A stretch of 64,000 nucleotides of DNA from Escherichia coli (GCF_044647545.1 NZ_CP172818.1); one strand, 5' to 3'. Shown: positions 4,309-27,710, counted from the stretch's first letter. Translations and numbers: made by a program. The notes: a model not told the origin generated them from the letters alone.

Positions 4309-4311
4309 GTT

Positions 4312-6292: not shown

Positions 6293-6496
6293 AAATTACC
6301 GACGACCTCTGAAGTTATCCTGACGTTTTACAGGCTTTGTATTAAGAAACTATTAAGCCTGTGAGATATTATTTTTACCGGTGAGAGAGTCACGTCAGGG
6401 TAGAGAGATAATGAGAGCAGCTATATAAGAGATCAGCGCAATTACGATATCTTGATTACACTGACAGGATTTTACATATTTAACGGATTATCCTCA

Positions 6497-6521
6497 GGAA
6501 AAAGGGCTGGAATACCAGCCC
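6497..6521 (-). terminator. Putative rho-independent terminator downstream of tdh (end of kbl-tdh operon)
   Basis: GC stem gggctgg/ccagccc (6504..6521) followed on the minus strand by a T-run, 10 bp after the tdh stop. Confidence 0.5.
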
Positions 6522-6530
6522 TTGTTTGTG

Positions 6531-7556: not shown

Positions 7557-7565
7557 CTCACATCC

Positions 7566-8762
7566 TCAGGCGATAACGCCCAGTTGTTTACCAATACGCG
7601 TGAATGCTTCTACTGCACGCGTAATTTGCTCAGGGGTATGCGCCGCAGACATCTGGGTACGAATACGCGCCTGACCTTTCGGAACGACCGGATAGAAGAA
7701 ACCGGTGACGTAAATCCCCTCTTTTTGCAGCTCACGAGCAAATTTCTGCGCTACTACCGCATCGCCAAGCATGACCGGAATAATGGCGTGATCGGCTCCC
7801 GCCAGGGTAAAGCCCGCCGCCGACATTTGCTCACGGAACTGACGCGCGTTCGCCCACAGACGGTCACGCAGCTCGCTACCCGCTTCAACCATCTCCAGCA
7901 CTTTGATGGAAGCGGCAACAATGGCCGGTGCCAGCGAGTTGGAGAACAGGTACGGACGAGAACGCTGGCGCAGCCACTCAACCACTTCTTTGCGCGCCGC
8001 GGTATAACCACCAGAAGCCCCGCCCAATGCTTTACCCAACGTACCGGTAATGATGTCTACACGCCCCATCACATCGCAGTATTCATGGGAACCACGACCG
8101 TTTTCACCGACAAAACCGACCGCGTGGGAGTCGTCTACCATCACCAGGGCATCGTATTTATCTGCCAGATCGCAAACGCCCTTCAGATTGGCAATCACGC
8201 CGTCCATCGAGAACACACCATCGGTGGCAATCAGCACATGACGCGCACCGGCTTCACGCGCTTCTTTCAGACGAGCTTCCAGCTCCTGCATATCGTTGTT
8301 GGCATAGCGATAGCGTTTAGCTTTACACAGACGCACACCATCAATAATAGACGCGTGGTTCAGTGCGTCGGAGATAATGGCGTCTTCCGCGCCCAACAGC
8401 GTTTCAAACAGGCCACCGTTAGCATCAAAGCAGGAAGAGTAGAGAATCGCATCTTCCATCCCCAGGAAGGCCGCCAGTTTTTGTTCAAGCTCTTTATGAC
8501 TGTCCTGAGTGCCGCAAATAAAACGCACCGAAGCCATGCCGAAACCGTGAGAATCCATTCCCGCCTTTGCCGCCGCAATCAGATCCGGATGATTCGCCAG
8601 TCCGAGATAGTTATTGGCACAAAAGTTAATGACGTGGCTTCCATCAGCCACAGTGATATCTGCTTGCTGCGCAGACGTAATAATGCGCTCTTCTTTAAAC
8701 AACCCTTCCGCCCGTGCGGTTTCCAGATCGTTGGTTAACTGCTGATAACATTCTCCACGCAT
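7566..8762 (-). CDS. kbl: 2-amino-3-ketobutyrate CoA ligase (glycine C-acetyltransferase)
   Basis: 398 aa ORF, PLP-dependent aminotransferase class II; immediately upstream of tdh. Confidence 0.95.
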
Positions 8763-8971
8763 TGCGATTCTCCAGACAGGGCAAATTCCAGCACATATTA
8801 CCCAAACTTATAGGTCGCGACGAGATGACGCGTTAACACTTCTGCAAAATTCAGGATAAATCCAGCCCCCTCACTTTTGGTGAATGGCTGAAGCCAACGT
8901 CATGTAGTGATATGATAAGAAGTATTCGTGTCTGAGATTGTCTCTGACTCCATAATTCGAAGGTTACAGCT

Positions 8972-9904
8972 ATGATCATCGTTACCGGCGGCGCGGGCTT
9001 TATCGGCAGCAACATCGTTAAAGCCCTGAATGATAAAGGCATCACCGATATTCTGGTGGTGGACAACCTGAAAGACGGCACCAAGTTTGTCAACCTGGTG
9101 GATCTGGATATCGCGGACTATATGGATAAGGAAGACTTCCTGATCCAGATTATGGCTGGCGAAGAGTTCGGCGATGTCGAAGCGATTTTCCACGAAGGCG
9201 CGTGCTCTTCCACCACCGAGTGGGACGGCAAGTATATGATGGATAACAACTATCAATACTCCAAAGAGCTGCTGCACTACTGTCTGGAGCGCGAAATCCC
9301 GTTCCTGTATGCCTCTTCCGCAGCCACTTACGGTGGACGCACCTCCGACTTTATTGAATCCCGCGAATATGAAAAACCGTTGAATGTCTACGGTTACTCA
9401 AAATTCCTGTTTGATGAATATGTTCGCCAAATCCTGCCTGAAGCGAACTCGCAGATTGTTGGCTTCCGTTATTTCAACGTTTATGGACCGCGTGAAGGCC
9501 ATAAAGGCAGCATGGCGAGCGTCGCTTTCCATCTCAACACCCAGCTTAATAACGGTGAATCACCGAAGCTGTTCGAAGGTAGCGAGAACTTTAAACGCGA
9601 CTTCGTCTATGTGGGCGACGTGGCAGATGTAAACCTGTGGTTCCTGGAAAATGGCGTTTCCGGCATCTTCAACCTCGGTACTGGTCGTGCGGAATCCTTC
9701 CAGGCTGTAGCAGATGCTACGCTTGCTTATCACAAGAAAGGCCAGATCGAATACATTCCGTTCCCGGATAAACTGAAAGGCCGCTATCAGGCGTTCACGC
9801 AGGCAGACCTGACGAATCTGCGCGCGGCGGGTTATGACAAACCGTTCAAAACCGTTGCCGAAGGCGTAACGGAATACATGGCCTGGCTGAATCGCGACGC
9901 ATAA
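8972..9904 (+). CDS. hldD: ADP-L-glycero-D-manno-heptose 6-epimerase
   Basis: 310 aa ORF starting [16 protein letters not shown] (Rossmann NAD(P) motif); first gene of hldD-waaFCL operon. Confidence 0.95.
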
Positions 9905-9913
9905 GAGCTCTGC

Positions 9914-10960
9914 ATGAAAATACTGGTGATCGGCCCGTCTTGGGTTGGCGACATGATGATGTCGCAAAGTCTCTATCGCACGCTCCAGGCGCGCTATCCC
10001 CAGGCGATAATCGACGTGATGGCACCGGCATGGTGCCGTCCATTATTATCGCGGATGCCGGAAGTTAACGAAGCTATTCCTATGCCTCTCGGTCACGGAG
10101 CGCTGGAAATCGGCGAACGCCGCAAACTGGGTCATAGTCTGCGTGAAAAGCGCTACGACCGCGCCTACGTCTTACCCAACTCCTTCAAGTCCGCATTAGT
10201 GCCTTTCTTCGCGGGTATTCCTCATCGCACCGGCTGGCGCGGCGAGATGCGCTACGGTTTACTTAACGATGTACGCGTGCTCAATAAAGAAGCCTGGCCG
10301 CTAATGGTGGAACGCTATGTCGCGCTGGCCTATGACAAAGGCATTATGCGTACAGCACAAGATCTGCCGCAGCCATTGTTATGGCCGCAGTTGCAGGTGA
10401 GCGAAGGTGAAAAATCATATACCTGTAATCAATTTTCGCTTTCATCAGAACGTCCGATGATTGGCTTTTGCCCGGGTGCGGAGTTTGGTCCGGCAAAACG
10501 CTGGCCACACTACCACTATGCGGAGCTGGCAAAGCAGCTGATTGATGAAGGTTATCAGGTGGTTCTGTTTGGCTCGGCGAAAGATCATGAAGCGGGCAAT
10601 GAGATTCTTGCCGCTTTGAATACTGAGCAGCAGGCATGGTGTCGTAACCTGGCGGGGGAAACACAGCTTGATCAAGCGGTTATCCTGATTGCAGCCTGTA
10701 AAGCCATTGTCACTAACGATTCTGGCCTGATGCACGTTGCGGCGGCGCTCAATCGTCCGCTGGTTGCCCTGTATGGTCCGAGTAGCCCAGACTTCACACC
10801 GCCGCTATCCCATAAAGCGCGCGTGATCCGCCTGATTACCGGCTATCACAAAGTGCGTAAAGGTGACGCTGCGGAGGGTTATCACCAGAGCTTGATCGAC
10901 ATTACTCCCCAGCGCGTACTGGAAGAACTCAACGCGCTATTGTTACAAGAGGAAGCCTGA
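9914..10960 (+). CDS. waaF: LPS heptosyltransferase II
   Basis: 348 aa ORF, GT9 heptosyltransferase; synteny. Confidence 0.93.
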   Translation: MKILVIGPSWVGDMMMSQSLYRTLQARYPQAIIDVMAPAWCRPLLSRMPEVNEAIPMPLGHGALEIGERRKLGHSLREKRYDRAYVLPNSFKSALVPFFAGIPHRTGWRGEMRYGLLNDVRVLNKEAWPLMVERYVALAYDKGIMRTAQDLPQPLLWPQLQVSEGEKSYTCNQFSLSSERPMIGFCPGAEFGPAKRWPHYHYAELAKQLIDEGYQVVLFGSAKDHEAGNEILAALNTEQQAWCRNLAGETQLDQAVILIAACKAIVTNDSGLMHVAAALNRPLVALYGPSSPDFTPPLSHKARVIRLITGYHKVRKGDAAEGYHQSLIDITPQRVLEELNALLLQEEA

Positions 10961-10963
10961 CGG

Positions 10964-11923
10964 ATGCGGGTTTTGATCGTTAAAACATCGTCGATGGGCG
11001 ATGTTCTCCATACGTTGCCCGCACTCACTGATGCCCAGCAGGCAATCCCAGGGATTAAGTTTGACTGGGTGGTGGAAGAAGGGTTCGCACAGATTCCTTC
11101 CTGGCACGCCGCCGTTGAGCGAGTTATTCCTGTGGCAATACGTCGCTGGCGTAAAGCCTGGTTCTCGGCCCCCATAAAAGCTGAACGCAAAGCGTTTCGT
11201 GAAGCGCTACAAGCAGAGAACTATGACGCAGTTATCGATGCTCAGGGGCTGGTAAAAAGCGCGGCGCTGGTGACGCGTCTGGCGCATGGCGTAAAGCATG
11301 GCATGGACTGGCAAACCGCTCGCGAACCTTTAGCCAGCCTGTTTTACAATCGTAAGCATCATATTGCGAAACAGCAGCACGCCGTAGAACGCACCCGCGA
11401 ACTGTTTGCCAAAAGTTTGGGCTATAGCAAACCGCAAACCCAGGGCGATTATGCTATCGCACAGCATTTCCTGACGAACCGGCCTACAGATGCTGGCGAA
11501 TATGCCGTATTTCTTCATGCGACGACCCGTGATGATAAACACTGGCCGGAAGAACACTGGCGAGAATTGATTGGTTTACTGGCTGATTCAGGAATACGGA
11601 TTAAACTTCCGTGGGGCGCGCCGCATGAGGAAGAACGGGCGAAACGACTGGCGGAAGGATTTGCTTATGTTGAAGTATTGCCGAAGATGAGTCTGGAAGG
11701 CGTTGCCCGCGTGCTGGCCGGGGCTAAATTTGTAGTGTCGGTGGATACGGGGTTAAGCCATTTAACGGCGGCACTGGATAGACCCAATATCACGGTTTAT
11801 GGACCAACCGATCCTGGATTAATTGGTGGGTATGGGAAGAATCAGATGGTTTGTAGGGCTCCAAGAGAAAATTTAAATAACCTCAACAGTCAAGCAGTTT
11901 TGGAAAAGTTATCATCATTATAA
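10964..11923 (+). CDS. waaC: LPS heptosyltransferase I
   Basis: 319 aa ORF, GT9; synteny. Confidence 0.93.
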   Translation: MRVLIVKTSSMGDVLHTLPALTDAQQAIPGIKFDWVVEEGFAQIPSWHAAVERVIPVAIRRWRKAWFSAPIKAERKAFREALQAENYDAVIDAQGLVKSAALVTRLAHGVKHGMDWQTAREPLASLFYNRKHHIAKQQHAVERTRELFAKSLGYSKPQTQGDYAIAQHFLTNRPTDAGEYAVFLHATTRDDKHWPEEHWRELIGLLADSGIRIKLPWGAPHEEERAKRLAEGFAYVEVLPKMSLEGVARVLAGAKFVVSVDTGLSHLTAALDRPNITVYGPTDPGLIGGYGKNQMVCRAPRENLNNLNSQAVLEKLSSL

Positions 11924-11932
11924 AGGTAAAAC

Positions 11933-13192
11933 ATGCTAACATCCTTTAAACTTCATTCATTGAAACCTTACACTCTGAAATCATCAATGATTTTAGAGAT
12001 AATAACTTATATATTATGTTTTTTTTCAATGATAATTGCATTCGTCGATAATACTTTCAGCATAAAAATATATAATATCACTGCTATAGTTTGCTTATTG
12101 TCACTAATTTTACGTGGCAGACAAGAAAATTATAATATAAAAAACCTTATTCTTCCCCTTTCTATATTTTTAATAGGCTTGCTTGATTTAATTTGGTATT
12201 CTGCGTTTAAAGTAGATAATTCGCCATTTCGTGCTACTTACCATAGTTATTTAAATACTGCCAAAATATTTATATTTGGTTCTTTTATTGTTTTCTTGAC
12301 ACTAACTAGCCAGCTAAAATCAAAAAAAGAGAGTGTATTATACACTTTGTATTCTCTGTCATTTCTAATTGCTGGATATGCAATGTATATTAATAGCATT
12401 CATGAAAATGACCGCATTTCTTTTGGTGTAGGAACGGCAACAGGAGCAGCATATTCAACAATGCTAATAGGGATAGTTAGTGGCGTTGCGATTCTTTATA
12501 CTAAGAAAAATCATCCTTTTTTATTTTTATTAAATAGTTGCGCGGTACTTTATGTTCTGGCGCTAACACAAACCAGAGCAACCCTACTCCTGTTCCCTAT
12601 AATTTGTGTTGCTGCATTAATAGCTTATTATAATAAATCACCCAAGAAATTCACTTCCTCTATTGTTCTACTAATTGCTATATTAGCTAGCATTGTTATT
12701 ATATTTAATAAACCAATACAGAATCGCTATAATGAAGCATTAAATGACTTAAACAGTTATACCAATGCTAATAGTGTTACTTCCCTAGGTGCAAGACTGG
12801 CAATGTACGAAATTGGTTTAAATATATTCATAAAGTCACCTTTTTCATTTAGATCAGCAGAGTCACGCGCTGAAAGTATGAATTTGTTAGTTGCAGAACA
12901 CAATAGGCTAAGAGGGGCATTGGAGTTTTCTAACGTACATCTACATAATGAGATAATTGAAGCAGGGTCACTGAAAGGTCTGATGGGAATTTTTTCCACA
13001 CTTTTCCTCTATTTTTCACTATTTTATATAGCATATAAAAAACGAGCTTTGGGTTTGTTGATATTAACGCTTGGCATTGTGGGGATTGGACTCAGTGATG
13101 TGATCATATGGGCACGCAGCATTCCAATTATCATTATATCCGCTATAGTCCTCTTACTCGTCATTAATAATCGTAACAATACAATTAATTAA
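11933..13192 (+). CDS. waaL: O-antigen ligase
   Basis: 419 aa polytopic membrane protein, AT-rich codon usage; position after waaC; length equals K-12 WaaL. Confidence 0.9.
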   Translation: MLTSFKLHSLKPYTLKSSMILEIITYILCFFSMIIAFVDNTFSIKIYNITAIVCLLSLILRGRQENYNIKNLILPLSIFLIGLLDLIWYSAFKVDNSPFRATYHSYLNTAKIFIFGSFIVFLTLTSQLKSKKESVLYTLYSLSFLIAGYAMYINSIHENDRISFGVGTATGAAYSTMLIGIVSGVAILYTKKNHPFLFLLNSCAVLYVLALTQTRATLLLFPIICVAALIAYYNKSPKKFTSSIVLLIAILASIVIIFNKPIQNRYNEALNDLNSYTNANSVTSLGARLAMYEIGLNIFIKSPFSFRSAESRAESMNLLVAEHNRLRGALEFSNVHLHNEIIEAGSLKGLMGIFSTLFLYFSLFYIAYKKRALGLLILTLGIVGIGLSDVIIWARSIPIIIISAIVLLLVINNRNNTIN

Positions 13193-13206
13193 GAATAAAC
13201 AAGTTT

Positions 13207-13232
13207 AAGAAGTGAGTTAAAACTCACTTCTT
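13207..13232. terminator. Perfect palindrome between convergent waaL and waaU (putative bidirectional terminator)
   Basis: aagaagtgagtt-aa-aactcacttctt inverted repeat overlapping the waaU stop codon. Confidence 0.4.
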
Positions 13233-14297
13233 ATCTATACAACTTAATCTCTTTACTGAATTAGTTAAAGTTTCAGTATCGATATCTTTTACCGTATATG
13301 TTGGGGATACTATTTGTATAGATTTATGATGATTCGGGGACCAAATTAAATGCGAGGGATATTCCGGAGTACGTGAATTAGGGTAAAATGCAAGCGTTGG
13401 TTTATGATAAGCCGCAGCGATATGAACAAGAGCTGTATCAACAGAAATGACAAAATCACTATACTTGGTCAACGCAACGGTATAAATAAACTCATCAAAT
13501 GGTAGTGTTTCGATTTCAAGTATTGGTATTGTCAATAAATCTTGCGGTAACCCGGTAAATATAATCCGATAATTTTCAAAGTGTGTTTTCACTTCTTGAT
13601 ATATAACTTTTATTTGCTCAAACGTAAGACGGCATATTTTTTTTGCACCTAATGGATTAATAATGACTATTCTTGTATCTCCAATAAATTCTTTTATTTT
13701 ATCTTCAACATCTACTGGTAAATGCAAGTCGTAGTTGGTGGAAAATTTACCCTCACCATAAATATGCTTCAGTATTTCTATTGCTCGTGTACTCATATGT
13801 TCTTTTAAACATTCATCGTGGGGATGGTAAAATGAATAGTAACGCTTATACCAATGATCAAAACCCAGAATGTAAGAATCTTTTAAACTTGATAATATTA
13901 AGCTATGCTTAAATGAGGGCATAGTTTCAAAGGGGTCTAATACAATATCGAACTGTAAATCCCGCAGATGCTTACATAGAGTAAGCATTTCAAGAAAACC
14001 GGTTGATTCTTTAATACAGAACTCAAATATATTTTTATTATTAGAGAGAAATTCCCCACCCTTTCTATTTGTGAGAAGAGTTATTTTAACCCCTTTACTA
14101 TAAAGTTCACGATAAATCGAACTTAATACAATTAGATCACCAAGTTTATTATTATCATGAATAATAAGGCATGATTTAACTTGTGCTGGATCTGTAATTT
14201 GATTATTTATTTTATTACGAAATAAAAAAGAAAGGAAATTAATCTTGATTTTGTTTATATAAAATCTTTTCTTTTTGTGAAAAGTTCCTAAGCGCAT
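13224..14297 (-). CDS. waaU: LPS core heptosyltransferase IV (RfaK/WaaU, K-12 type)
   Basis: 357 aa ORF, GT9-like; last gene of waaQ operon; length equals K-12 WaaU. Confidence 0.85.
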   Translation of the reverse strand: MRLGTFHKKKRFYINKIKINFLSFLFRNKINNQITDPAQVKSCLIIHDNNKLGDLIVLSSIYRELYSKGVKITLLTNRKGGEFLSNNKNIFEFCIKESTGFLEMLTLCKHLRDLQFDIVLDPFETMPSFKHSLILSSLKDSYILGFDHWYKRYYSFYHPHDECLKEHMSTRAIEILKHIYGEGKFSTNYDLHLPVDVEDKIKEFIGDTRIVIINPLGAKKICRLTFEQIKVIYQEVKTHFENYRIIFTGLPQDLLTIPILEIETLPFDEFIYTVALTKYSDFVISVDTALVHIAAAYHKPTLAFYPNSRTPEYPSHLIWSPNHHKSIQIVSPTYTVKDIDTETLTNSVKRLSCIDKK

Positions 14298-14329
14298 TTT
14301 TATACCATATTATTTTAGTTTCAGGATGA

Positions 14330-15181
14330 TTAATTAGCATAAGAATCGGTTGAAGTTCTATATTGCATTTTTTTTCTTGTCATATCTTTTGATTCTTCTG
14401 CACTGATGTCTTGAAGTTTAATAAATGGAATTACATCGTAAGAAATAGCTGTATCATCTGATAAATTATAAATATTAATATCTTTTACATTATCATGCAT
14501 AAAACGAAAAAATGGCAATATTTTGAATAAATCCCTACTTAATTCCGAGGGCATGGGATTTTTATTCTCATCATAGAAACGAGAACAGCTACCCGTTAAA
14601 TCAAGACCAGAACAAATAATCCGCGCATACTTAAGTGAATATGCGATTTGAATTGCAGCAAAGGCAATAGTATGGCATGAGCAATAACCAAGACTAATGT
14701 CCTTGCAAAATCCAACCAGACGACCTTTTTTAGACAACGGTACAGAGATCAGCAGTTCTTTGTGAATCTGTCTCAAAATATTAAATTTAATCTTCTTTAT
14801 AAAACCACCTTTTTCCCGACGGTAAAAGGACCGTAATACGAGGCAGTTCTGGAGGATATAAAGTTTATCTTCTTTGGAAGCGTGTTCATAAACGTCAACG
14901 TTTACTATGGTATAACGACTTCTCTGGCTAAATTTATAAAAATCATCACGACGCTGATGTAAAAATCGGACATCTGTAAGTACATATATAAAAGGAACGA
15001 TATTATTACTTAACAGATATTGCGCAGAACCATTGACAGCAATAATATCCTTTGTTCGTAATACTGACAAAGGTGTTTTTTGCGATGTAGGGCCCGAAAG
15101 AAAAATAATAACATCATCAGATATTTTATTTTCAATCAGGTTTTCAACATCTTTTTTGTCAATGTATCTAATATTCTTCAT
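14330..15181 (-). CDS. waaZ: LPS core biosynthesis protein WaaZ (KdoIII-associated)
   Basis: 283 aa ORF; position and length as in K-12 waa cluster. Confidence 0.8.
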   Translation of the reverse strand: MKNIRYIDKKDVENLIENKISDDVIIFLSGPTSQKTPLSVLRTKDIIAVNGSAQYLLSNNIVPFIYVLTDVRFLHQRRDDFYKFSQRSRYTIVNVDVYEHASKEDKLYILQNCLVLRSFYRREKGGFIKKIKFNILRQIHKELLISVPLSKKGRLVGFCKDISLGYCSCHTIAFAAIQIAYSLKYARIICSGLDLTGSCSRFYDENKNPMPSELSRDLFKILPFFRFMHDNVKDINIYNLSDDTAISYDVIPFIKLQDISAEESKDMTRKKMQYRTSTDSYAN

Positions 15182-15251
15182 GATAAACCTGTGAAATAAA
15201 TAACTCCGCTTAAAACTGTCCTGGTGAAGACATGTAATTGTGGGATTTTTT

Positions 15252-15950
15252 TTAGCGCGCTGGTTTCCCTTTCAAACGCCGCATAAAATTGCGCATTTTT
15301 TTACGATATACTAAAAGATAATAGCCTAGATCTCTAATCTCATTTTTAATACCGTAATGACGCTCTAAGTCAATACGATCTTTCGCTTTACGCTGCGCTG
15401 AAGCACGCTTTCCGGAGAGATCGATAATTCGAACCTCACCATTTTTTATAATGAAGTTACCACGATGGGGGTCGCCAGAAACCATGCCATGTTGATGTAA
15501 GGCATTAATTGATTGCTGAATTTTATTTTTTAGCGCATCATCAATATCGGGCATATCACACAACTCTATGCCATCAATATACTCGATGATCATGATATAA
15601 GTATGGACAAAACGTAAGGTTTTCCGTTCAGCCAATAAATAAAAGTCATTGAGTGTATTTAACCCTTCATTTCGTACTTTTTGGGTTTGCTCAAAAAGGC
15701 GTTCGTAATAATCACCTTTTAACAGAGACTTAAAGAAACGTTCGTTACGCTTAACTTTCGGAGAAAAAACCTTAAGAATCAATTTACCGTAATCGGTATC
15801 AATAAGCATAACTTTTGTATCATCAATAGAACGAAAAACCTTGATGATATTTATATTATAAGACAAGAAGTCATTTAATACATTGAGGTACTTTGAATTG
15901 TTTTCATCGGTAAAAACAACCAAGTCTTTGATCTTGCTCTTCTGAATCAT
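15252..15950 (-). CDS. waaY: LPS core heptose(II) kinase
   Basis: 232 aa ORF, kinase-like (HGDPHRGNF); position and length as K-12 WaaY. Confidence 0.85.
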   Translation of the reverse strand: MIQKSKIKDLVVFTDENNSKYLNVLNDFLSYNINIIKVFRSIDDTKVMLIDTDYGKLILKVFSPKVKRNERFFKSLLKGDYYERLFEQTQKVRNEGLNTLNDFYLLAERKTLRFVHTYIMIIEYIDGIELCDMPDIDDALKNKIQQSINALHQHGMVSGDPHRGNFIIKNGEVRIIDLSGKRASAQRKAKDRIDLERHYGIKNEIRDLGYYLLVYRKKMRNFMRRLKGKPAR

Positions 15951-15967
15951 AATAAACCAGTTAAATG

Positions 15968-16984
15968 TTATTTACGGTAATATTTTCGGCAAAGATAACA
16001 GACTCCTGCTATAATTCCTGAGATATAATGATGTTGCACTAAAAGATGTTTATATCTTTTTTTAAATTCAATAATTGATTTCGCATCTCGTGGAGAGTCA
16101 TCTTTCCAGGGGGAATTTTCTAAAGCTATTTTATAGTATTTTACCGATGGATAAATTGCCCATTTGTGCCACGGTTTAGTTGCACCTGTATAATGAATAA
16201 GAAGAGTACTTTCTGTAATCAGCTTTTTATAGTTTTGATGTGTTTTGTCTTTTAATTCACTTTTAATTGTATAAATTGTATTGTACTCACGAGGCAAAAA
16301 TAATGTCATCCCTTTCAGTAAGACATTCATAACATCCTGATCAGGGTATTTATAAACATTATCTTTACTCATAAGAATAGACAACGCTTTTTCTGTTAGT
16401 TTTGCGTCAGCCCATTTTTTTAAGTCTAAATAAACGACACCGGAATTAAAGTACTGCCCAAGTAATTCAGGATCAGACAACCTGGATACCGCCTTTTCTT
16501 GCATTGGCTCAACATCTTTAACAACAGCAGCAACCGCTCCATTTAAACCCAGATGTAATAGTTGGCTAATATCGCCTTTACAAACAACATCTGCATCAAG
16601 ATAAAGCAAACGATCAAGCGTTAAACCCAATAATTGAAATGCAAATAAACGGAAGTACATTGCTCTTGACCAGACCTGTGTACAAGGCAAGCACTGGAGC
16701 TTATCAGTGTTAATTCTATATAACGTGATTCTTAATTGGTTTTGCTCTGCAAGCTTTGCAATTTTTTGAAAAAAACCATCATTATAAACATCAGCAATAA
16801 TATAAAAATCAAGATTAATATGTCGATTATTTAGGACAATTGATGTGATGGAAACACCTACACCATCAAGATAATTAGCATCGACACCATAGGCAACATT
16901 TAAACATTCAGAAGTATTTATATTAGCTAGCCGAAAATCCCAGGCTTTAACTTTATCTATCTCTATGGCAGGAAATGAGTCCAC
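15968..16984 (-). CDS. waaJ: LPS alpha-1,2-glucosyltransferase (GT8; RfaJ, called WaaR in Heinrichs nomenclature)
   Basis: 338 aa ORF, GT8 family with DxD; position and length as K-12. Confidence 0.85.
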   Translation of the reverse strand: MDSFPAIEIDKVKAWDFRLANINTSECLNVAYGVDANYLDGVGVSITSIVLNNRHINLDFYIIADVYNDGFFQKIAKLAEQNQLRITLYRINTDKLQCLPCTQVWSRAMYFRLFAFQLLGLTLDRLLYLDADVVCKGDISQLLHLGLNGAVAAVVKDVEPMQEKAVSRLSDPELLGQYFNSGVVYLDLKKWADAKLTEKALSILMSKDNVYKYPDQDVMNVLLKGMTLFLPREYNTIYTIKSELKDKTHQNYKKLITESTLLIHYTGATKPWHKWAIYPSVKYYKIALENSPWKDDSPRDAKSIIEFKKRYKHLLVQHHYISGIIAGVCYLCRKYYRK

Positions 16985-17023
16985 AATGCTACCCTTATAT
17001 CATTACTTTATAGTTTCCCAGTT

Positions 17024-18043
17024 TTAATGCTTTATCTTTTCAATAAAATAAAAAAGATAGTTGCTAAATCCTTTTAGATATCTATGCTTTTTAAGCATAT
17101 GTTTTGCGCTATATCTTAATTGATTGCTATTGTTCGGTTTCAGCAACGCCGTATTCTTCCATGGCGAAGCATTTTTTGCCTCCATAAAGGCTTGTGATAC
17201 AGGATAATCCCAGGCCCAATCATGCCAGGGCTTGGTTGGCCCGATATAATGGATAAAAATAGTATCGTTGGTTACTGGGTTTATAAAGCTTTCTTTGAGT
17301 TGATAATTTAAGCTGAACTGGGTGTTATATTTAATATCAGCGAAAATAAGTTTATCCGCCAGCAACATATTTAACACATCCTGATCAGGATGTGTTATTT
17401 TTTTGATTATTTCTGGCTCATTTAGCATTGCAATAGCTCGTGCAGAAACCTGCTGAGCCGCCCATTGGGCAGTATTAATCAATAAAAAACCGGAGTTAAA
17501 GTAACCTTTAGCAATTCCCGCAACACCTAACGAATGGGCGCGTTTTTCCCACCAGTCAGCTTGCCCTTCTGTAACAACCATTGCGACTTTATCGTCAGGA
17601 AATGAGAAATTAATTAGTGGCTCAATAGTCCCCTGACAAATGATATCTGCATCCAGATAAAGGACTTTAGGCGCCTTATTAATAAAGTAATCTGCAATAA
17701 CAAAACGAAAATATATTGCATGAGTCCAATTCTTAGTGCTAGGCAATGAGCGCAGTCGATCACCATTAATCAGATATATTTTAATTCTGGTTTTATACTG
17801 CAACGCCAGGGCATCAAAATACTTACGATCATCATCACCAAAATAATCAGTAAAAATATGGAAACACAATCGACTTCCTTCATTATATTTTAATATTGAA
17901 GCAATCGAAATTCCGCAACCAAATAGAAAGTTTTTGTCAGTTCCATAAGCGATGTCCAGACAAAGATTTTCTGTTTCTACTTTATGATCATAATCAATAA
18001 CTGAATTAAGAAACTCAGTTTCCTGGAAAAACACCTGCTGCAT
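17024..18043 (-). CDS. waaO: LPS alpha-1,3-glycosyltransferase (GT8; RfaI/WaaO)
   Basis: 339 aa ORF, GT8 family, paralogous to waaJ; position and length as K-12. Confidence 0.85.
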   Translation of the reverse strand: MQQVFFQETEFLNSVIDYDHKVETENLCLDIAYGTDKNFLFGCGISIASILKYNEGSRLCFHIFTDYFGDDDRKYFDALALQYKTRIKIYLINGDRLRSLPSTKNWTHAIYFRFVIADYFINKAPKVLYLDADIICQGTIEPLINFSFPDDKVAMVVTEGQADWWEKRAHSLGVAGIAKGYFNSGFLLINTAQWAAQQVSARAIAMLNEPEIIKKITHPDQDVLNMLLADKLIFADIKYNTQFSLNYQLKESFINPVTNDTIFIHYIGPTKPWHDWAWDYPVSQAFMEAKNASPWKNTALLKPNNSNQLRYSAKHMLKKHRYLKGFSNYLFYFIEKIKH

Positions 18044-19122
18044 TATTTCCTCCGGGAAATAGCAGAAATAATTACCTTATGTAATCTATCGTAATACTTC
18101 GATTGGTAAAATTCATCGATCGACGCAGGAATTTTTTCATGTTCGATATGAATTTCACCTGCTATATATTTATTTAGAAGAGTTACAAAACCAGCAATAT
18201 CTCCCGGTTGATACAGATGGCCATTGACATCAGGTTGAATAATGTCAGCAGGCCCGGAGACACAATCGGCACTGATACAAGGAATCCCCCACGACAAGGC
18301 TTCAAGTAGGGTCATTGGGAAACCTTCAAAAGATGACGTGAGCAATAACGCACTCACTTTTTCAATATCTTGCTGGACCAATTCCCAGGGATATTGTTGC
18401 CAACCATACCAGACAATTCGATCATCAATATTTAATTCTCTACCATAAGCCTGGCATTTTTCGAAATCGGAGCCATCACCCAATACATGGAGTTTCCAGT
18501 TACCTTTCGCTTGTGATAAGCCATCAAGCAGGTCTTTAACTCTTTTCTGGCCTTCAAATTTCATACGCCCAACATAAATAAACGTTGCCGTTTCACCTTC
18601 CTCGGGCGCGGGAATGACTGAGTCTTTAGTTTCGACGGGATTAAAAATAACATTTATCGTCGATTCTGCTACACCTCGATTAATCATTTGCTGTTTAATG
18701 CCAGAGCTGATTGCTAAATGATAGTCGGCACAGGTGATATATTCAGCATGTTTTTTGTGATCTAAAGAAAAATGTGGCCATGAAAATACTGGCATATCAA
18801 TTCCTGATTTTTTACGTGCTTTTGCGGCAAACAGGCAGGAGATCACATCAATACAAATAACGATATCTGGTTGGTACTCCTGAAGCCATTTACTTAGAGC
18901 ATGAATATGTTTCGCCCGACGCAAAAAACCTAAACGAATATTGGAAAATGAACATGAGTATTTAATACCTTCCAGCCATCCCTTATCCATTTTGTCATTA
19001 CGACAAAAGAAAAACATTTCACTTTGGATATGTTGTTGCCTGAAGGTAGTAATAACATCACGGATGACAGTTTCCATGCCGCCAAATCCAGAAACAGCTT
19101 CGCCGATAAACGCTATTTTCAT
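18043..19122 (-). CDS. waaB: LPS alpha-1,6-galactosyltransferase (GT4)
   Basis: ORF 18043..19152 trimmed to MKIAFIG start giving 359 aa; GT4 family; position as K-12. Confidence 0.85.
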   Translation of the reverse strand: MKIAFIGEAVSGFGGMETVIRDVITTFRQQHIQSEMFFFCRNDKMDKGWLEGIKYSCSFSNIRLGFLRRAKHIHALSKWLQEYQPDIVICIDVISCLFAAKARKKSGIDMPVFSWPHFSLDHKKHAEYITCADYHLAISSGIKQQMINRGVAESTINVIFNPVETKDSVIPAPEEGETATFIYVGRMKFEGQKRVKDLLDGLSQAKGNWKLHVLGDGSDFEKCQAYGRELNIDDRIVWYGWQQYPWELVQQDIEKVSALLLTSSFEGFPMTLLEALSWGIPCISADCVSGPADIIQPDVNGHLYQPGDIAGFVTLLNKYIAGEIHIEHEKIPASIDEFYQSKYYDRLHKVIISAISRRK

Positions 19123-19165
19123 AGAAACTCTCATTAATTGAGTAAAACTCACTGTTTTAACGGTT

Positions 19166-20101
19166 TTATTTGTCTATAAAATCAGAAACAATCGTTGACA
19201 TCATTTTATCTGGACTGAATTTATATAAACTATCATAATCCATTGGTTTAACAGATGAGTTAATAAAATACTCTAACTTATCCCAATCATCATGACCTAT
19301 TATAAAAAAGCGAGATTCACTATAGATTTCTGAACCAAATACATTTATATTATTAGTAATTAATTTTTTATTGAAAAATAGTGCCTCAAGTATACGAAGA
19401 GTCCAGCCAGATTGGTTTTCTTTGGTTATATCAACAATTATATTAGCATTTAATGTTCTTCTAATATTCTCTTCATAAGATATTTGTTTTTCAATCAAAT
19501 ACTTTGAAGTCGTAGATGATGTCTTATCTTTGACAACATTAAAATCTAGCTTACATCCTAGTGTTGTTAATCTCTCGGCTAACTCATTAATTATTTGAAG
19601 ACGCCCTTTATCACGACCAAGGAAAAAACATATTGGCTGGCTGTTATTTTTGTCAGATAAACTATAATTTCTAATTTCATCCATTCCTATAGGAAAAAAT
19701 TGTTCTATTGCCTTGATCTTTTCATTCCCTATAAATCTATGCTCAAAATCATATATAATATCGAAATAATTCGCGTTATCAAGAATAAAATCTTCGCCAA
19801 CAGTATTTCTTAGAAGCAAAACTTTATGACAGTTAATATTTTTTAATATTTGTTTATTGATACCTTTATTAACAACACTGTCATTAATGATAATTATGTC
19901 ATCTTTTTTAATATCATTGAGGTAATGCTTGATGAATAATCGCCCCAGCCATGCATTATCCATCCCTATTTTTGATATTTTTTTATTAATCCAGTTATAT
20001 TTTTTTGGTGTTGTTATATTTTTTATCTTGTACTTTTTTTTCAGGTACTGAATCATTTTTAATTCATAATCTGCAACCCAATTTATAAAATAAATAGTCA
20101 T
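19166..20101 (-). CDS. waaS: LPS core biosynthesis protein WaaS
   Basis: 311 aa ORF, very AT-rich; position and length as K-12 WaaS. Confidence 0.8.
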
Positions 20102-20137
20102 AATAAAGTTAGTTCCAGTACATACTAATAAATATTT

Positions 20138-20935
20138 TTATAATCCTTTGCGTTGTGTTCGCTCTTTAATACGCTCGGCCTTAACGCTTGCCATGTTCAA
20201 TAAATTCTGTTCAAGAGACAATATTTTGCGTAAAGGCATCCCAAAATACACTTTCATAAACCGCCAGATATCCCGCTGAGTCAGGCCGATATTCATCGAA
20301 GAAAAATAAAGCCCAATAAGATCTTTATCGCGCCAACGACGTGGAACGCGCGTGCGAAGCTGCGCCCGGTGCAGGTCAATTACTGAAATTTTTAACTCCT
20401 CTTCCTTACCGGAAAAAGGCAAGTGCAGCAGGAAATGACAGATATAACAGTCACGGTGGTTAATGCCCGCAGCATGCATATCGCGCACCATCGTCGCGAC
20501 ACGCTTAATAAGCATACGCTTTACGCGAACATCTGGTGGGTTGGTCGCCCAGTCAGCACAGTAATCTTCCAGACTGATGGTTGGTGTCAGATCTTCGGTA
20601 ATAATAAACGAGGTTCTGGTCAGCGGATTAATGCCTTTTTCGCCGAATGCCACCCCATACATAGTATCAACGCCGACATCCCGCAGTCGATGAATCGCAT
20701 TCCATTCGCGGTCTGCGCCTAATACTGGCATCCGCAATGAGAGTAAATTTTTGATTATCTCTTTCAGGGTCGTGCCGCGATGCCATTTGAGAAAATAGCT
20801 TTTGCCCGCCATTTCAAAGCGCAGAGTGCGGCGAGTTTCCAGTTCACGAAATACCTCACCCTGCAAGGTTTTAACTTCCTCAAAAGGATCTTTACCGCGC
20901 CATAACGTGGCAAACGGCTCTTTAAGTTCAACCAT
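20138..20935 (-). CDS. waaP: LPS core heptose(I) kinase
   Basis: Trimmed to [14 protein letters not shown] start giving 265 aa; kinase motifs ([11 protein letters not shown]). Confidence 0.9.
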
Positions 20936-22052
20936 CCAGACCACCCGTTATGATGTCCGCTGCTTTCTCTGGCAGACTGTATAAATCTTGTGTATCAGCA
21001 TAATGTCGCGCATTTTCTGCCCAGGCCTGGCGCAATGAAGATTGCGTTAACGCTTTGCGTAAAATCTCATTCAATGTTTCCTGGCGGAATGGCTCAGCAA
21101 TAGCCTCGCCGCAATTGGCGTCAACAATATAATGCGCATAGCCACAAACGGCTGTTGTTAGTACCGGTAATCCTGCAGTAATCGCTTCCAGCAGCACAAT
21201 TCCCGCCGCTTCCTGGTAGGCAGGATGAAGTAATAAATCCGCCGCCGCCATTAATTCCGAGACATCGTTGCGCCCCGAGAAGAAGTGAACATTACTGCGC
21301 ACGCCGCGTTTTTCTGCCAGCGCCTCAAATTTTCGCGGTTTATCCTGCCCAACAACATATAGTAATGTGTTGTGGCGCAGCGAATCCGGTAACGAAGCAA
21401 GTGCTTCAATGGAACGATCGACACCTTTACGCGTGAAGTCTGAACCGACCTGCAACAATAAATATTGTTGTTCGGTTATTCCATTCTTCTTACGGAAGAT
21501 TTCACGGCTATTCGCTGGTTGCTGGCTATATTTACGATCAGGATAAATCCCCGGTGGCAGAATATGAAAACGCTCCGCTTCAGTCTGATAATGTTTCTGG
21601 AAATCGGCGATTTGCTTATCTGTCAGCATCAGCAGCTGTGTCGGCTTGCCCTGTTCGAAGGTTGCCCGCTCAAAGGCGGCATAATGGCGATAACGTGACG
21701 TCAGGCGATAGAAAAAGCCTTTCTCCTGCGCTACTTTCTCGGCATAACAAACATCAGCGGCATAATAAACGTCCAGCCCCGGCATTTTATTAAATCCAAC
21801 GACTCTATCGACGGGGTATTCACGTAAATGTTTTTGCACCCAGGCAAAATATTCCGCATTGCGCCCGTGATTGGTATGCGATTTAACCGGCACTTTGATC
21901 AGTTCAAATACATCAGGGCATTCGCCTTCCCACGACTGGGTATAAACCCGAACATGATGACCTCGGGCGGCAACTGTCTGAGCAATACGCATAAAATCGC
22001 GCTGCAAACCGCCAAAGGGAAAATATTTATATAAACAAAAAGCAACGATCAT
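20928..22052 (-). CDS. waaG: LPS glucosyltransferase I (GT4)
   Basis: 374 aa ORF; overlaps waaP start and waaQ stop (translational coupling). Confidence 0.92.
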
Positions 22053-23107
22053 AACGACGTACCTGTCGTGGAGGAGGGAAGTAATTTATCGACAGCTGCA
22101 ATGACATCTGCCGCCGGAATAACCGAAAGATACATCTCATTTCGGTCACGCTGATCGCGCGTTGGCATTTCCCGGTAATCTCCCGCCCAGAATTGAATCA
22201 TGTTATTTGACCAGGGACGCCAGAAAATATGGTCTGTCGCACCAAACAGCGATATCAGTGGCGTATTAACTGCAGCGGCAATATGCGCCGGTGCGGAATC
22301 AACGCCAATAAACAGCTGCGCATGATCGATTAACGCACCAAGTTCCGGGAAGGTCACCTTTCCGGCCAGTGCCGTTACTGGTGGCGTCTGGCATCCCTGC
22401 GCAATTTCATTGACGCAGGCCAGATCGTCTTTATCTGGGCCGGACGTCAGAACGACTTCATAACCACGAGCATGTAAGGCATCAATCACAGCGGAAAACT
22501 TGGCGTTGTCCCAGCATTTGAAGATTTGCCGCGCCGTAGGTTGGATAACCACATAATTTTGTCCAACACCAGCGTGATCAAGTTCGCGACGCATACGTTT
22601 CCAGCTTGCAGGCGGGTAACTCATGGTTGTCTGCTTCACCAACGATTCAAGTCCCAATGGCGTCAGCACGGATAAGTTACTTTCCACCACATTTCCACCC
22701 TGCAACGGCACCAAATGAGTGAAACTATTACGCCAAAAAGCAGACTGCCGATGATGATAATCCTGGGAAATTTTCACACGGGCATTTAATAAGCGAACCA
22801 GTATAGCAACCATCCATTGATCGGTAAGATTAACGATAAGGTCATACTTATTGGCACGTAATATCTTGATGAGATGGAAAAAGTTGGCAATTTTTTCTGA
22901 GGCTTTTGCTTTTTTATTTTTTATGCCGTAGAGCGCGTTAATCTCTGGATTTTCAGACAGGATCGGGATGGTGTCCTGATAAAGCAGCACATCGATTTTT
23001 GCGTCAGGGTAATTTTTTTTCAGCGAACTAATGACGGGAGTAGTTAATAACATATCCCCATGAAAACGCATCTTAATGAGCAAAATTCTTCGAAATGGCT
23101 TATCCAC
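22049..23107 (-). CDS. waaQ: LPS heptosyltransferase III
   Basis: GT9 family; first gene of long operon; ORF starts with GTG at 23107 (352 codons); true start may be the in-frame TTG 24 nt downstream (344 aa). Confidence 0.88.
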   Translation of the reverse strand: MDKPFRRILLIKMRFHGDMLLTTPVISSLKKNYPDAKIDVLLYQDTIPILSENPEINALYGIKNKKAKASEKIANFFHLIKILRANKYDLIVNLTDQWMVAILVRLLNARVKISQDYHHRQSAFWRNSFTHLVPLQGGNVVESNLSVLTPLGLESLVKQTTMSYPPASWKRMRRELDHAGVGQNYVVIQPTARQIFKCWDNAKFSAVIDALHARGYEVVLTSGPDKDDLACVNEIAQGCQTPPVTALAGKVTFPELGALIDHAQLFIGVDSAPAHIAAAVNTPLISLFGATDHIFWRPWSNNMIQFWAGDYREMPTRDQRDRNEMYLSVIPAADVIAAVDKLLPSSTTGTSL

Positions 23108-23156
23108 AAGTAACTCTTTTTGTTGAGATTATCCGATTAAGGTGAAGCAGAAAAAG

Positions 23157-23168
23157 CACGCTACCGCC
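23157..23168 (-). promoter_or_regulatory. ops element (RfaH recruitment site) within the JUMPstart leader of the waaQ operon
   Basis: Minus-strand sequence GGCGGTAGCGTG matches the ops consensus GGCGGTAGnnTG, located ~50 nt upstream of the waaQ start inside a ~410 bp untranslated leader. Confidence 0.75.
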
Positions 23169-23519
23169 CCAGGCTCAACAGCTACCTGAATACTGATACC
23201 GCACTGATATTGACGCGCTAGTGTATCACTTCTTTCGCGGCAATCCGACCCGAATGATTTTTAAGCACATTGTTGATTTTCAATAAAGAAATCAATCAAA
23301 TAAAATCATTAGCAACCATATTCTTTTACTGTTGCTCTGCGATTCCTTCCTGCACGTACTGCAGAAATCAATGAATCGCATAAAAATACAAAAAAAGTAT
23401 AGATGTTCAGCAAGAATTGGCGGGTAAATTGCTATTTAAGTCAAAAACGGGAAAAGTAATGGTAAAGCCACAGCTAAATACATAGAATCCCCAGCACATC
23501 CATAAGTCAGCTATTTACT

Positions 23520-25284
<1,765 letters not shown>

Positions 25285-25322
25285 CGTTTATGCCGGATGG
25301 TATGCCATCCGGCTCGCATCAA

Positions 25323-26132
25323 TTACTTCTGGCACTGCCGACAATAAAACGTTGCCCGCTGCGCATGTTTAGTCGCCACAATTGGCGTACCGCACACCCG
25401 ACACGGCTCGCCTTTTCGCCCGTAAACCTGCAATTCCTGCGCGAAATAGCCCGGTTTACCATCACTTTGCAGAAAATCTTTCAGCGTTGTACCACCCTGC
25501 TCAATCGAACGCAGCAACACCGCTTTAATCACCCGAGCTAACAATTCACACTCTGCCAGCGACAGTGATGACGCCAGCCGATCCGGATGGATCCCCGCAG
25601 CAAACAGAGATTCGCTGGCATAGATATTCCCTACGCCTACCACCAGCTTGTTATCCATCAGCCATGGTTTAATCGCCGTTTTTTTCTTCGCGCACTTCTG
25701 ATGCAGGTACTCACCGTTGAAATCGTCGCTAAGCGGCTCCGGTCCAAGATGGGCCAGCACGTTGTGCCCTTCCAGCTCTTTGGTCCACAGCCAGGCACCA
25801 AAGCGGCGCGGATCGGTGTAGCGCAGCACTTTACCGTTGCTCATCACCAAATCAACATGGTCATGCTTTTCAGGGGGAAGTTCTTCTGGAAGGATGCGCA
25901 GGCTGCCAGACATCCCCAAATGAATGATAATCCAGCCCTCAGGCAGCTCCAGCAGCAGATATTTAGCCCGCCGCTGCACGCTAAGCACTGGTTGGTCGCT
26001 TAAACGGTAGATCTCTTCTGAAACCGGCCAGCGCAAGCGTCCGTTGCGCACCACCGCATGAAGAATGGTTGCACCAACGAGATGCGGTTCTATGCCGCGA
26101 CGGCTGGTTTCAACTTCGGGTAATTCAGGCAT
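25323..26132 (-). CDS. mutM: Formamidopyrimidine-DNA glycosylase
   Basis: 269 aa ORF starting MPELPEVE with C-terminal zinc finger (CRVCGTPI...CRQCQ). Confidence 0.95.
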
Positions 26133-26183
26133 AGCATCTCCAGGAATGAACAGATGCAGTCAATATGGGGGCAAGCAGATAAC

Positions 26184-26210
26184 AAAAAACCCCGCCGGAG
26201 CGAGGTTTTT
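26184..26210 (-). terminator. Putative rho-independent terminator after rpmG
   Basis: GC-rich hairpin flanked by A-run and T-run between the rpmG stop and mutM start. Confidence 0.5.
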
Positions 26211-26229
26211 CGTTACATCAAAGCGAGAA

Positions 26230-26400
<171 letters not shown>

Positions 26401-26417
26401 TTATTTCCTCTAAGTAC

Positions 26418-26675
<258 letters not shown>

Positions 26676-26870
26676 TTAGCTCGAGCTTCGTATGGGGTAT
26701 TGGCGCCTCGTCAGGCTTTACAGCCCGGTCATCGCAGTTCTATGTGAACTCTCGATTGCCAGGCCCAAATGCCAAACCCGAGATTCTCAAAGGTGGCGTA
26801 GTATACGCTGACTCAGCGATGTGCTCAAGTCCCGAACAGACAAAGATCCCGAAGGATCGCGCATAGCGGG

Positions 26871-27539: not shown

Positions 27540-27710
27540 CTTCACCTCCTTTGTGGTGCTCGCATCCTGTCATAGCCGTTCCGTTAAATCGACGGCCAGT
27601 TTTCAATCCTGGAAAGCGCCTCGCAAAGTGATTCTCAGGTGAAGGCACGACAACAAAAGTATTGTGATAAAATCGCCAACTTCTGGTGTCACCCAACAGG
27701 AAAAATCATC

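Follow-up and report, generated by a model that had tools for sequence, protein, structure and literature searches.

The outer core of lipopolysaccharide (LPS) is the receptor of many coliphages, the attachment site of O antigen and a target of anti-core antibodies, and core type serves as a typing marker, as a rule following phylogroup and sequence type (ST). The waa locus studied here raises the question of which core type it encodes and how that type came to lie in this Escherichia coli chromosome. All coordinates are counted from the first letter of the window, which is the whole 64,000-nt stretch analyzed. An initial annotation, made from the sequence alone, had described a complete K-12-type core locus running from waaL to waaQ. 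The features of that locus are as follows.

11933-13192, plus strand: waaL, O-antigen ligase, K-12 type (419 aa; 100% identical to MG1655; Pfam Wzy_C)
13206-13233, between convergent waaL and waaU: palindrome with a 12-bp stem, terminator-like (consensus scan only)
13224-14297, minus strand: waaU, HepIV transferase, GT9 (357 aa; 100% identical to MG1655; Pfam GT9)
14330-15181, minus strand: waaZ, KdoIII transferase (283 aa; 100% identical to MG1655; NCBIfam equivalog, 554 bits)
15252-15950, minus strand: waaY, HepII kinase (232 aa; 100% identical to MG1655; NCBIfam RfaY)
15968-16984, minus strand: waaJ (= waaR), alpha-1,2-glucosyltransferase, GT8 (338 aa; 100% identical to MG1655; Pfam GT8)
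17024-18043, minus strand: waaO, alpha-1,3-glucosyltransferase, GT8 (339 aa; 100% identical to MG1655; NCBIfam, 582 bits)
18043-19122, minus strand: waaB, alpha-1,6-galactosyltransferase (359 aa from ATG; 100% identical to MG1655; NCBIfam equivalog)
19166-20101, minus strand: waaS (311 aa; 100% identical to MG1655; NCBIfam WaaS/CpsH subfamily)
20138-20935, minus strand: waaP, HepI kinase, chimeric (265 aa from ATG; NCBIfam RfaP, 476 bits)
20928-22052, minus strand: waaG, glucosyltransferase I, GT4, majority haplotype (374 aa; Pfam GT4 and Glycos_transf_1)
22049-23107, minus strand: waaQ, heptosyltransferase III, majority haplotype (352 aa; NCBIfam RfaQ, 713 bits)

Every ORF, from waaL at 11933 to waaQ at 23107, was recovered with the coordinates and length first assigned to it. 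The order waaQ-G-P-S-B-O-J(R)-Y-Z-U is that of the MG1655 annotation and is convergent with waaL, which ends the gmhD-waaF-waaC operon; the ORF listing and the MG1655 annotation thus agree with the initial annotation that gene order and predicted protein lengths match the K-12 core type. The longest ORFs of waaB and waaP are slightly longer than the genes listed (369 aa, from a GTG at 19152, and 268 aa, respectively). waaQ starts with GTG, as in the PGAP annotation of other genomes, and its product matches the RfaQ profile end to end. No internal stop, frameshift, or IS element was found in the genes from waaL to waaQ, and a promoter and terminator scan of the locus returned counts equal to the shuffled expectation.

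Comparison of the locus proteins by blastp with K-12, R1, R2, R3, and R4 reference proteins separates the types cleanly. For the ORFs at 13224-20101 and for waaL, that is WaaL, U, Z, Y, J, O, B, and S, the best matches are the K-12 proteins at 100% identity, and none has its best match in an R1-R4 enzyme; nucleotide identity to MG1655 from waaL through waaS is 100.00%, far beyond chance. Against the R1, R3, and R4 references the outer-core ORFs show no match or 31-58% identity, as for WaaY (52-58% to all three) and WaaL (~31%, at most 31.6%, to R1 and R4, with no match to R2 or R3). R2 has homologues of only WaaZ (88%), WaaY (92%), WaaJ (90%), WaaO (88%), and WaaB (92%), the last having no match in R1, R3, or R4. 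WaaS and the product of the K-12-specific gene waaU match nothing among the R1-R4 references. The earlier statement that R1-R4 carry other genes in place of waaS, waaB, waaZ, and waaU therefore holds for waaU and waaS, which are K-12 only among these references, but not for the whole set, since the R2 genome M505 keeps WaaZ, Y, J, O, and B at 88-92%.

The features that discriminate K-12 from R2, namely waaU rather than waaK, the waaL allele, and waaS rather than the GT8 gene wabA, are all of the K-12 kind in the window, and the R2 markers waaK (GlcNAc transferase), R2 waaL, and wabA have no homologue in its cassette. Likewise, the R1/R4 set (waaT, waaW, waaV for R1 or waaX for R4, and the matching waaL) gave only distant matches to GT8 paralogues, at 38-43%, and the R3 set (waaI, waaJ, waaD, and waaL) gave 40-58% identity or no match in the window. 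NCBIfam and Pfam assignments are consistent with the K-12 gene set. The 100% best matches to K-12 proteins, combined with weak or absent matches to R1, R3, and R4 and the sharing of only five proteins, at lower identity, with R2, confirm the predicted core type as K-12, encoded by a textbook gene cluster.

In this cluster, transcription of the long waaQ operon runs leftwards. Its enzymes include WaaG, which attaches GlcI to the inner core, and WaaP, WaaQ, and WaaY, which are responsible for phosphorylation and branching in the heptose region; WaaO, WaaB, WaaJ, and WaaU add the outer-core GlcII, Gal side branch, GlcIII, and HepIV, while WaaZ and WaaS give rise to nonstoichiometric KdoIII/Rha glycoforms. 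WaaL, from the rightward gmhD-waaF-waaC-waaL operon, ligates O antigen to the core. Judged by identity to these characterized enzymes, the locus is an intact, functional-looking K-12-type locus that we predict to direct synthesis of the K-12 core oligosaccharide.

The K-12 assignment nevertheless applies to the central cassette only. A block of 8,386 bp at 11863-20248, spanning the 3′ tip of waaC, waaL, waaU through waaS, and the 3′ tip of waaP, is collinear with K-12 and equals MG1655 at 8,385 of 8,386 nt; its GC content of 33.2%, compared with ~52% in the flanks, is a low-GC signature. Differences from MG1655 are zero in 11878-20248 and then jump to 20-30% up to 23430, such that the 5′ 690 nt of waaP, waaG, waaQ, and the waaQ-waaA intergenic region show ~70-80% (about 75%) nucleotide identity to MG1655. 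At the protein level WaaP, WaaG, and WaaQ are 90%, 90%, and 73% identical to their K-12 counterparts and 94%, 99-100%, and 99% identical to the R1, R3, and R4 references, and WaaG is 100% identical to that of ST648. At 70-80%, the window thus lies well outside the MG1655-type waaQGP/leader haplotype, defined by at least 95% nucleotide identity to MG1655. Its waaQ, waaG, most of waaP, and the waaQ leader instead belong to the majority haplotype of E. coli, which 4,469 of 5,425 records carry at 95% identity or more. A locus that is K-12 throughout is ruled out by these data, and the description of it as complete K-12 type stands for the outer core but fails for waaQ, waaG, most of waaP, and the waaQ leader. 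The gene htrL/yibB, present in MG1655, is absent from the window. It is also missing from BL21, but a K-12 × B-type laboratory hybrid is ruled out because identity of the flanks to BL21 reaches only 97-99%.

The leader and the genes that flank the locus are the following.

8972-9904, plus strand: rfaD/gmhD, ADP-heptose 6-epimerase (310 aa; 99.7% amino acid identity to MG1655; ST648-identical flank), first gene of the gmhD-waaF-waaC-waaL operon
9914-10960, plus strand: waaF, heptosyltransferase II (348 aa; 99.4% amino acid identity to MG1655; ST648-type flank)
10964-11923, plus strand: waaC, heptosyltransferase I, chimeric (by comparison of ST648 and K-12 residues)
23157-23195, minus strand: JUMPStart element with ops in the waaQ leader (Rfam RF01707, 55.2 bits against a gathering score of 35)
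23520-24797, plus strand: waaA, Kdo transferase, divergent from waaQ (99.8% amino acid identity to MG1655; ST648-type flank)

JUMPStart/ops leaders confer RfaH-dependent antitermination on the waaQ operon. The ops motif GGCGGTAG lies at 23161-23168, inside the JUMPStart element of the 5′ leader, and the K-12 and ST648 leaders do not differ in this element. With it, the waaQ operon has the hallmark of an RfaH-dependent operon, and RfaH dependence is predicted. Elsewhere, at 26.18-26.26 kb, weak Rfam matches to istR and Leu_leader do not reach the respective gathering scores and resemble a generic terminator.

Outside the cassette, the chromosome resembles ST648. Positions 1-11880 are 99.87% identical to ST648, with only 3 SNPs and 3 indels in the left flank, and positions 20242-30071 are 99.97% identical, with only 1 SNP and 2 homopolymer indels in the right flank; the heterologous cassette lies between them, no donor SNPs were seen in either flank, and the remainder of the window is ST648 apart from indels. 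ST648 belongs to phylogroup F and, according to its genome annotation, carries a 6.1-kb R4 cassette at this position, in agreement with published core typing, which gives ST648 as R4. In the ST648 genome NZ_CP008697.1, the R4 cassette consists of waaL(R4), a GT25 gene at the waaX position, waaW, waaY, waaT, and waaO, whereas the locus is the same as the window outside 11863-20241, including waaG, waaQ, the leader, and the absence of htrL. The initial annotation, which took the K-12 core as the main strain-typing information in the window, was correct about the core type but missed its ST648-like chromosomal background, the relatives of which have the R4 type.

The two boundaries of the cassette can be placed closely.

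11852-11880, no strand: left junction, ST648 sequence through 11862 and K-12-type sequence from 11863
20242-20248, no strand: right junction, window identical to MG1655 up to 20248 and to ST648 from 20242

The left junction falls within the last ~60 nt of waaC and the right within the last ~110 nt of waaP. WaaC residues 1-300 are ST648-type and the C-terminal ~19 are K-12-type except for Asn305, which has the ST648 state; WaaP residues 1-231 are those of ST648 and residues 232-265 those of K-12. The sole SNP of the cassette relative to MG1655 is at 11877, where the base is A, as in the aligned ST648 sequence, against T in all six K-12-type loci compared. This base lies 15 nt away from the left junction and agrees with ST648, which points to a patchy junction in place of a simple crossover; a scar left by a primer or by engineering would also be consistent with it. 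No 100% match to either junction was found among 5,426 complete genomes, the exact chimeric WaaC and WaaP have no record in the public gene-position index, and the left-junction 46-mer is absent from metagenome contigs.

The arrangement looks like a cassette swap rather than a new system. We consider it likely that, in this intact K-12-type locus, a K-12-type cassette replaced an R4 cassette by homologous recombination in an ST648-like chromosome, a mechanism already proposed in the literature for core-type replacement. Crossovers would have occurred in the conserved ends, within 11816-11862 in waaC and within 20242-~20383 in waaP, switching the core type of the strain and leaving WaaC and WaaP chimeric but full-length. 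Against this reading, the left crossover interval of only 47 nt is tight for RecA-mediated exchange, and no donor flank was cotransferred.

Possible donors are indicated by three Indonesian farm isolates, HS-01 (NZ_CP172817.1), BS-04 (NZ_CP172819.1), and BS-01 (NZ_CP172816.1), the only complete genomes in which, as in the window, a K-12-proper cassette is joined to the majority waaP at 20249. HS-01 is identical to the window over 11878-20260 and differs at 1 position across the cassette (11863-20248), and BS-01 is identical over 19112-20383, although identity is 97% in the middle of its cassette and the annotation marks several of its genes as frameshifted. The right junction is thus also present in HS-01 and BS-01. 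All three isolates differ from the window in having K-12-like rather than ST648-like flanks and 42-43 SNPs in waaPGQ. The donor probably resembled the natural strains HS-01 and BS-01, in which a K-12-proper cassette and the majority allele of waaP already adjoin. By comparison, the MG1655 locus (b3619-b3633) shares gene order, cassette, and JUMPStart/ops core with the window but differs in waaPGQ and the leader, in htrL/yibB, and in its flanks, which are 1-3% different.

Could the cassette have been placed by design? A laboratory swap, in which the R4 outer core of an ST648-like strain was replaced scarlessly by an amplified K-12 region, for example for phage-receptor work, would account for the near identity to laboratory MG1655, for junctions exactly at the homology edges, where a designer would place recombineering arms, for flanks clean of donor SNPs, and for a single SNP within the would-be primer. 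We nonetheless regard it as very improbable. The collinear block contains no marker, FRT site, or other scar in 11.8-20.3 kb, its right-hand junction recurs in farm isolates, and the other structural differences from ST648 outside the cassette are not the MG1655 state; moreover, natural K-12-proper cassettes are themselves ~100% identical to MG1655, so that this identity is not diagnostic. Contigs from gut and food metagenomes contain such cassettes at 99.9% identity or more.

The quality of the source assembly bears on a second alternative, that the true core type of the isolate is R4 and that contamination, mixed culture, or reference-guided patching introduced the K-12 block. A patch of ~650 nt at 57.3-58.0 kb, a length-conserved but homopolymer-smeared copy of ST648 sequence, is clearly degraded consensus, and three ST648 islands are missing at clean junctions; both raise the prior for an assembly or curation artefact, and the recombinant has no counterpart in public genomes, gene records, or metagenome contigs. 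However, MG1655 and ST648 agree exactly over only 11 nt at the left junction and 7 nt at the right one, which is not enough for an assembler based on k-mers or overlaps to cross from one sequence to the other, and at 11851 the window still has the ST648 allele. Mapping of reads to MG1655 is ruled out, as waaQGP is ST648-like and far from MG1655. The absence of htrL, an MG1655 gene, also argues against an artefact, as do the slmA/pyrE and yicS/nepI spacers, which differ from MG1655, the short spacers at 30072-30096 and 55858-55900, which are not MG1655 sequence, and the yicH/yicI site, where a unique 6.7-kb deletion still leaves ~560 nt of the ST648-type island. With no allele mixing in the flanks over ~55 kb, we judge an artefact unlikely.

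We infer the R4-to-K-12 direction of the replacement from population frequencies. The reverse would require that the K-12 cassette is the older one in this sublineage and that the sequenced ST648 clade gained R4 later. Neither the RT-gene insertion nor the eip/iatC island carried by all listed ST648 genomes is present in the window, which may thus branch outside them, and published typing shows phylogroup F to include both R4 and R1, which means that core types do change inside this group. Yet K-12 type is essentially unreported in phylogroup F, and K-12-proper cassettes otherwise occur in K-12-like backgrounds. Over 8.4 kb the cassette departs from phylogroup A K-12 cassettes at a single nucleotide, compared with a divergence of 1-3% in the flanks, which requires a very recent between-lineage transfer in either direction. 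The reversed order therefore seems improbable, and we lean, with some reserve, toward a natural and very recent event in which a lineage of the high-risk ExPEC clone ST648 exchanged its whole R4 cassette for a K-12 one.

Related exchanges are known. The ST131-type K-12 locus (for example, in CU568-3 and DETEC-P881) has the same gene content and majority waaQGP haplotype as the window, but its cassette is only 95.7-95.8% identical and its waaP breakpoint lies 40-70 nt further in; the differing waaP breakpoints in the DETEC-P881 and ST131 lineages point to repeated recombination there. Recombination also reshuffles the waa locus in R2/K-12 hybrids (Trofimova et al. 2025, PMC13293308), in which single genes (waaU/waaK, waaL) are exchanged inside the outer core, in contrast to the window, where the whole cassette was exchanged and the outer core is pure K-12.

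This is known biology and not of a new kind. It shows that the core-type marker can be decoupled from its background: a K-12 core lies in an ST648-like chromosome where R4 is expected, and as a result ST on its own would mispredict the phage host range or core type of this strain. It also shows that "K-12 type" denotes the central cassette only, the waaQGP haplotype of laboratory K-12 being a minority one that most K-12-type wild strains, like the window, do not carry. If the switch is natural, it would provide a clean natural example of the homologous-recombination route so far only proposed for core-type exchange, with both crossovers placed to within tens of bases, and it would have altered the phage-receptor and core-antibody profile of an otherwise ST648 strain.

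The ORF map reproduces exactly the gene positions and lengths of the initial annotation across the lipopolysaccharide core locus:

11933-13192, plus strand, waaL
ending at 23107, minus strand, waaU, waaZ, waaY, waaJ, waaO, waaB, waaS, waaP, waaG and waaQ, in that order

The lengths of WaaB (359 aa) and WaaP (265 aa) are taken from the annotated ATG codons, and WaaQ (352 aa) starts with a GTG at 23107. The genes are arranged as they are in the annotations of MG1655 and the best-matching annotated genome. The outer-core block lying between the 3′ tips of waaC and waaP (11863-20248, termed here the cassette) is strongly AT-rich, with a GC content of 33.2% compared with about 52% on either side. 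Three small K-12 proteins, YibX, YibX-S, and YibY, are annotated antisense to waaL (12757-13134), and their sequences are retained in the window because the DNA there is identical to that of MG1655.

Gene-by-gene comparison shows that waaL, U, Z, Y, J, O, B, and S have 100.00% nucleotide identity to MG1655 and contain no internal stops. As references for the other core types we took loci from annotated genomes: R1 from BL21, in which waaT is interrupted by IS1; R2 from M505, which carries waaK and, where waaS would lie, the GT8 gene wabA; R3 from O157:H7; and R4 from strain ST648 (NZ_CP008697.1), whose type is backed by a published typing table. In blastp searches against these references, WaaU and WaaS had no counterpart, WaaL had either no match or about 31% identity at best, and WaaZ, Y, J, O, and B were 88-92% identical to the R2 proteins and at most 58% identical to those of R1, R3, and R4. 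The matches to NCBIfam and Pfam agree with the gene assignments. Because the best matches do not fall to R1-R4 enzymes, the K-12 core typing is upheld. The accompanying claim that waaB and waaZ are absent from R2 was wrong, as both are common to R2 and K-12; the real discriminators between these types are waaU versus waaK, waaL, and waaS versus wabA. The locus is correct and complete for the K-12 core type, and its biology is known; its function is predicted from the JUMPStart/ops leader, which is intact, and from identity to characterized K-12 enzymes.

The K-12 label holds for the cassette and fails for waaQ, waaG, and most of waaP (together waaQGP) and their leader, such that the locus is a chimera, which the initial annotation missed. 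Differences from MG1655 are zero at 11878-20248 and then rise to 20-30% through waaP, waaG, waaQ, and the waaQ leader, to about 23430; identity to the K-12 proteins is 90% for WaaP, 90% for WaaG, and 73% for WaaQ. Over this region (20249-23430) E. coli splits into two deeply divergent haplotypes that are ~75% identical in nucleotide sequence, with WaaQ 73% identical in amino acids and a JUMPStart/ops core that is invariant across both. The haplotype in the window is the majority one, which 4,469 of 5,425 records, O157, BL21, and 55989 among them, match at ≥95% identity, while 955 of the 5,425, at 60-80% identity, have the minority form carried by laboratory K-12 and R2 strains. Of 5,426 genomes, 1,031 have the K-12 cassette itself, either as K-12 proper (≥99% identity; 458 genomes, mostly laboratory derivatives) or in an ST131-like form of 95.8% identity. 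Three Indonesian farm isolates with 4.5-Mb genomes, HS-01 (NZ_CP172817.1), BS-04 (NZ_CP172819.1), and BS-01 (NZ_CP172816.1), combine K-12-like waa flanks and cassette with the majority waaQGP haplotype. In BS-01 the middle of the cassette is 97% identical, and waaU, rfaY, and rfaP are among the waa genes with frameshifts or stops.

The rest of the window resembles ST648, a phylogroup F lineage. A dozen ST648-lineage genomes match positions 30000-54999 at 100.0% identity, and strain ST648 matches 1-11880 at 99.87% and 20242-30071 at 99.97%. Within the flanks proper the differences are only three SNPs and three indels on the left and one SNP and two homopolymer indels on the right. The 8.4-kb K-12 cassette occupies the place of the 6.1-kb R4 cassette of ST648. 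In published surveys phylogroup F is about 51% R4 and 46% R1, and ST648 is associated with R4. The rfaQ gene of the ST648 record is annotated as a frameshifted pseudogene; it differs from the intact window gene by only two single-T deletions, aligned to 22910 and 23013, which are probably sequencing errors of that record. Between kbl and rfaD (8763-8971) the window is missing htrL/yibB (858 bp), which is present in MG1655, O157, and HS-01 and absent from BL21, ST648, and 2016C-3878. The tRNA-Sec gene selC (51581-51675), at which islands classically integrate, is empty save for a short rhuM-like remnant that is annotated in ST648 too.

Both junctions were located to the base. On the left, ST648 sequence runs through 11862 and K-12-type sequence starts at 11863. 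At 11815 the six K-12-type loci examined all have G and the window has T, the ST648 state; at 11877 all six have T and the window has A, as ST648 does where the two align, a change that turns WaaC Ile305 into Asn. These states confine a simple crossover to 11816-11862, and the left junction looks patchy. On the right, the window equals MG1655 up to 20248 and ST648 starting at 20242. This junction is common to HS-01 and BS-01, the latter being identical to the window as far as 20383; DETEC-P881 and ST131 switch 40-70 nt deeper in waaP. WaaC and WaaP are both chimeric and full length.

The most economical reading is that the cassette was replaced by homologous recombination within the conserved ends of waaC and waaP, in which case the donor would be HS-01- or BS-01-like. 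The same route was proposed for core-type exchange by Leclercq et al. (PMC8715443), and it is consistent with the R2/K-12 hybrids that Trofimova et al. reported (PMC13293308). We regard a natural recombination origin as likely; the remaining probability is shared by an engineered swap, an assembly artefact, and an exchange in the reverse direction. Engineering would fit junctions lying exactly at the homology edges, the lack of any cotransferred donor SNPs, and a sole cassette SNP that adjoins the junction. One form of artefact, patching from the MG1655 reference, was rejected: the junction overlaps are just 11 nt and 7 nt, the ST648 allele is kept at 11851, waaQGP is non-K-12, htrL is absent, and other spacers differ from the MG1655 sequence.

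In favor of an artefact more generally, the source assembly is imperfect, with an ~650-nt smeared stretch at 57.3-58.0 kb, and three ST648 islands are missing from the window. The smeared stretch (57340-57990, nepI-yicN) copies the RelE/ParE-HTH toxin-antitoxin region of ST648, conserved in length but smeared into homopolymers (A12, G16, and C9, for example), and its ORFs encode FFFFF, PPPPP, and KKKK stretches. Its best match among 5,426 genomes is 89.3%, and its appearance points to gap closure or a low-quality consensus, not to evolution. No second patch of this kind was found within the 64-kb window.

At the slmA-pyrE site (30072-30096), where ST648 genomes hold a 1.29-kb insertion encoding a "reverse transcriptase family protein," the window has a 25-nt spacer resembling the usual terminator hairpin with its stem broken; no complete genome matches this spacer, and the best 1-kb match is 98.4%. 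At yicH-yicI (47016/47017) a deletion with clean ends, 6,718 bp by comparison with ST648, takes out the lyxose isomerase, ROK, two aldolase, and PTS-Fru IIA/IIB/IIC genes and leaves only the 5′ 268 nt of a BglG-family antiterminator; this junction is not covered to ≥80% by any complete genome. At yicS-nepI (55857-55901) the window is without the ~16.6-kb ST648 island that encodes a SycD-like chaperone, YopB/IpaD-like translocators, eilA, and an IS1-interrupted iatC, and the empty-site spacer is similar, not identical, to that of MG1655.

The recombinant is rare. Neither junction was matched at 100% among the 5,426 complete genomes searched, the best matches being HS-01 (99.8%) and BS-01 (99.4%), and neither the exact chimeric WaaC nor the exact chimeric WaaP was found in the public gene-position index. 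The left-junction 46-mer was not found in metagenome contigs; its canonical K-12 version occurs in 10, of which several carry cassettes of ≥99.9% identity and none has ST648-like flanks.

A K-12 cassette in an ST648-like chromosome is no new kind of system. What is added is this combination itself, with its junctions resolved to the base, a finding of use in typing and in predicting phage receptors.
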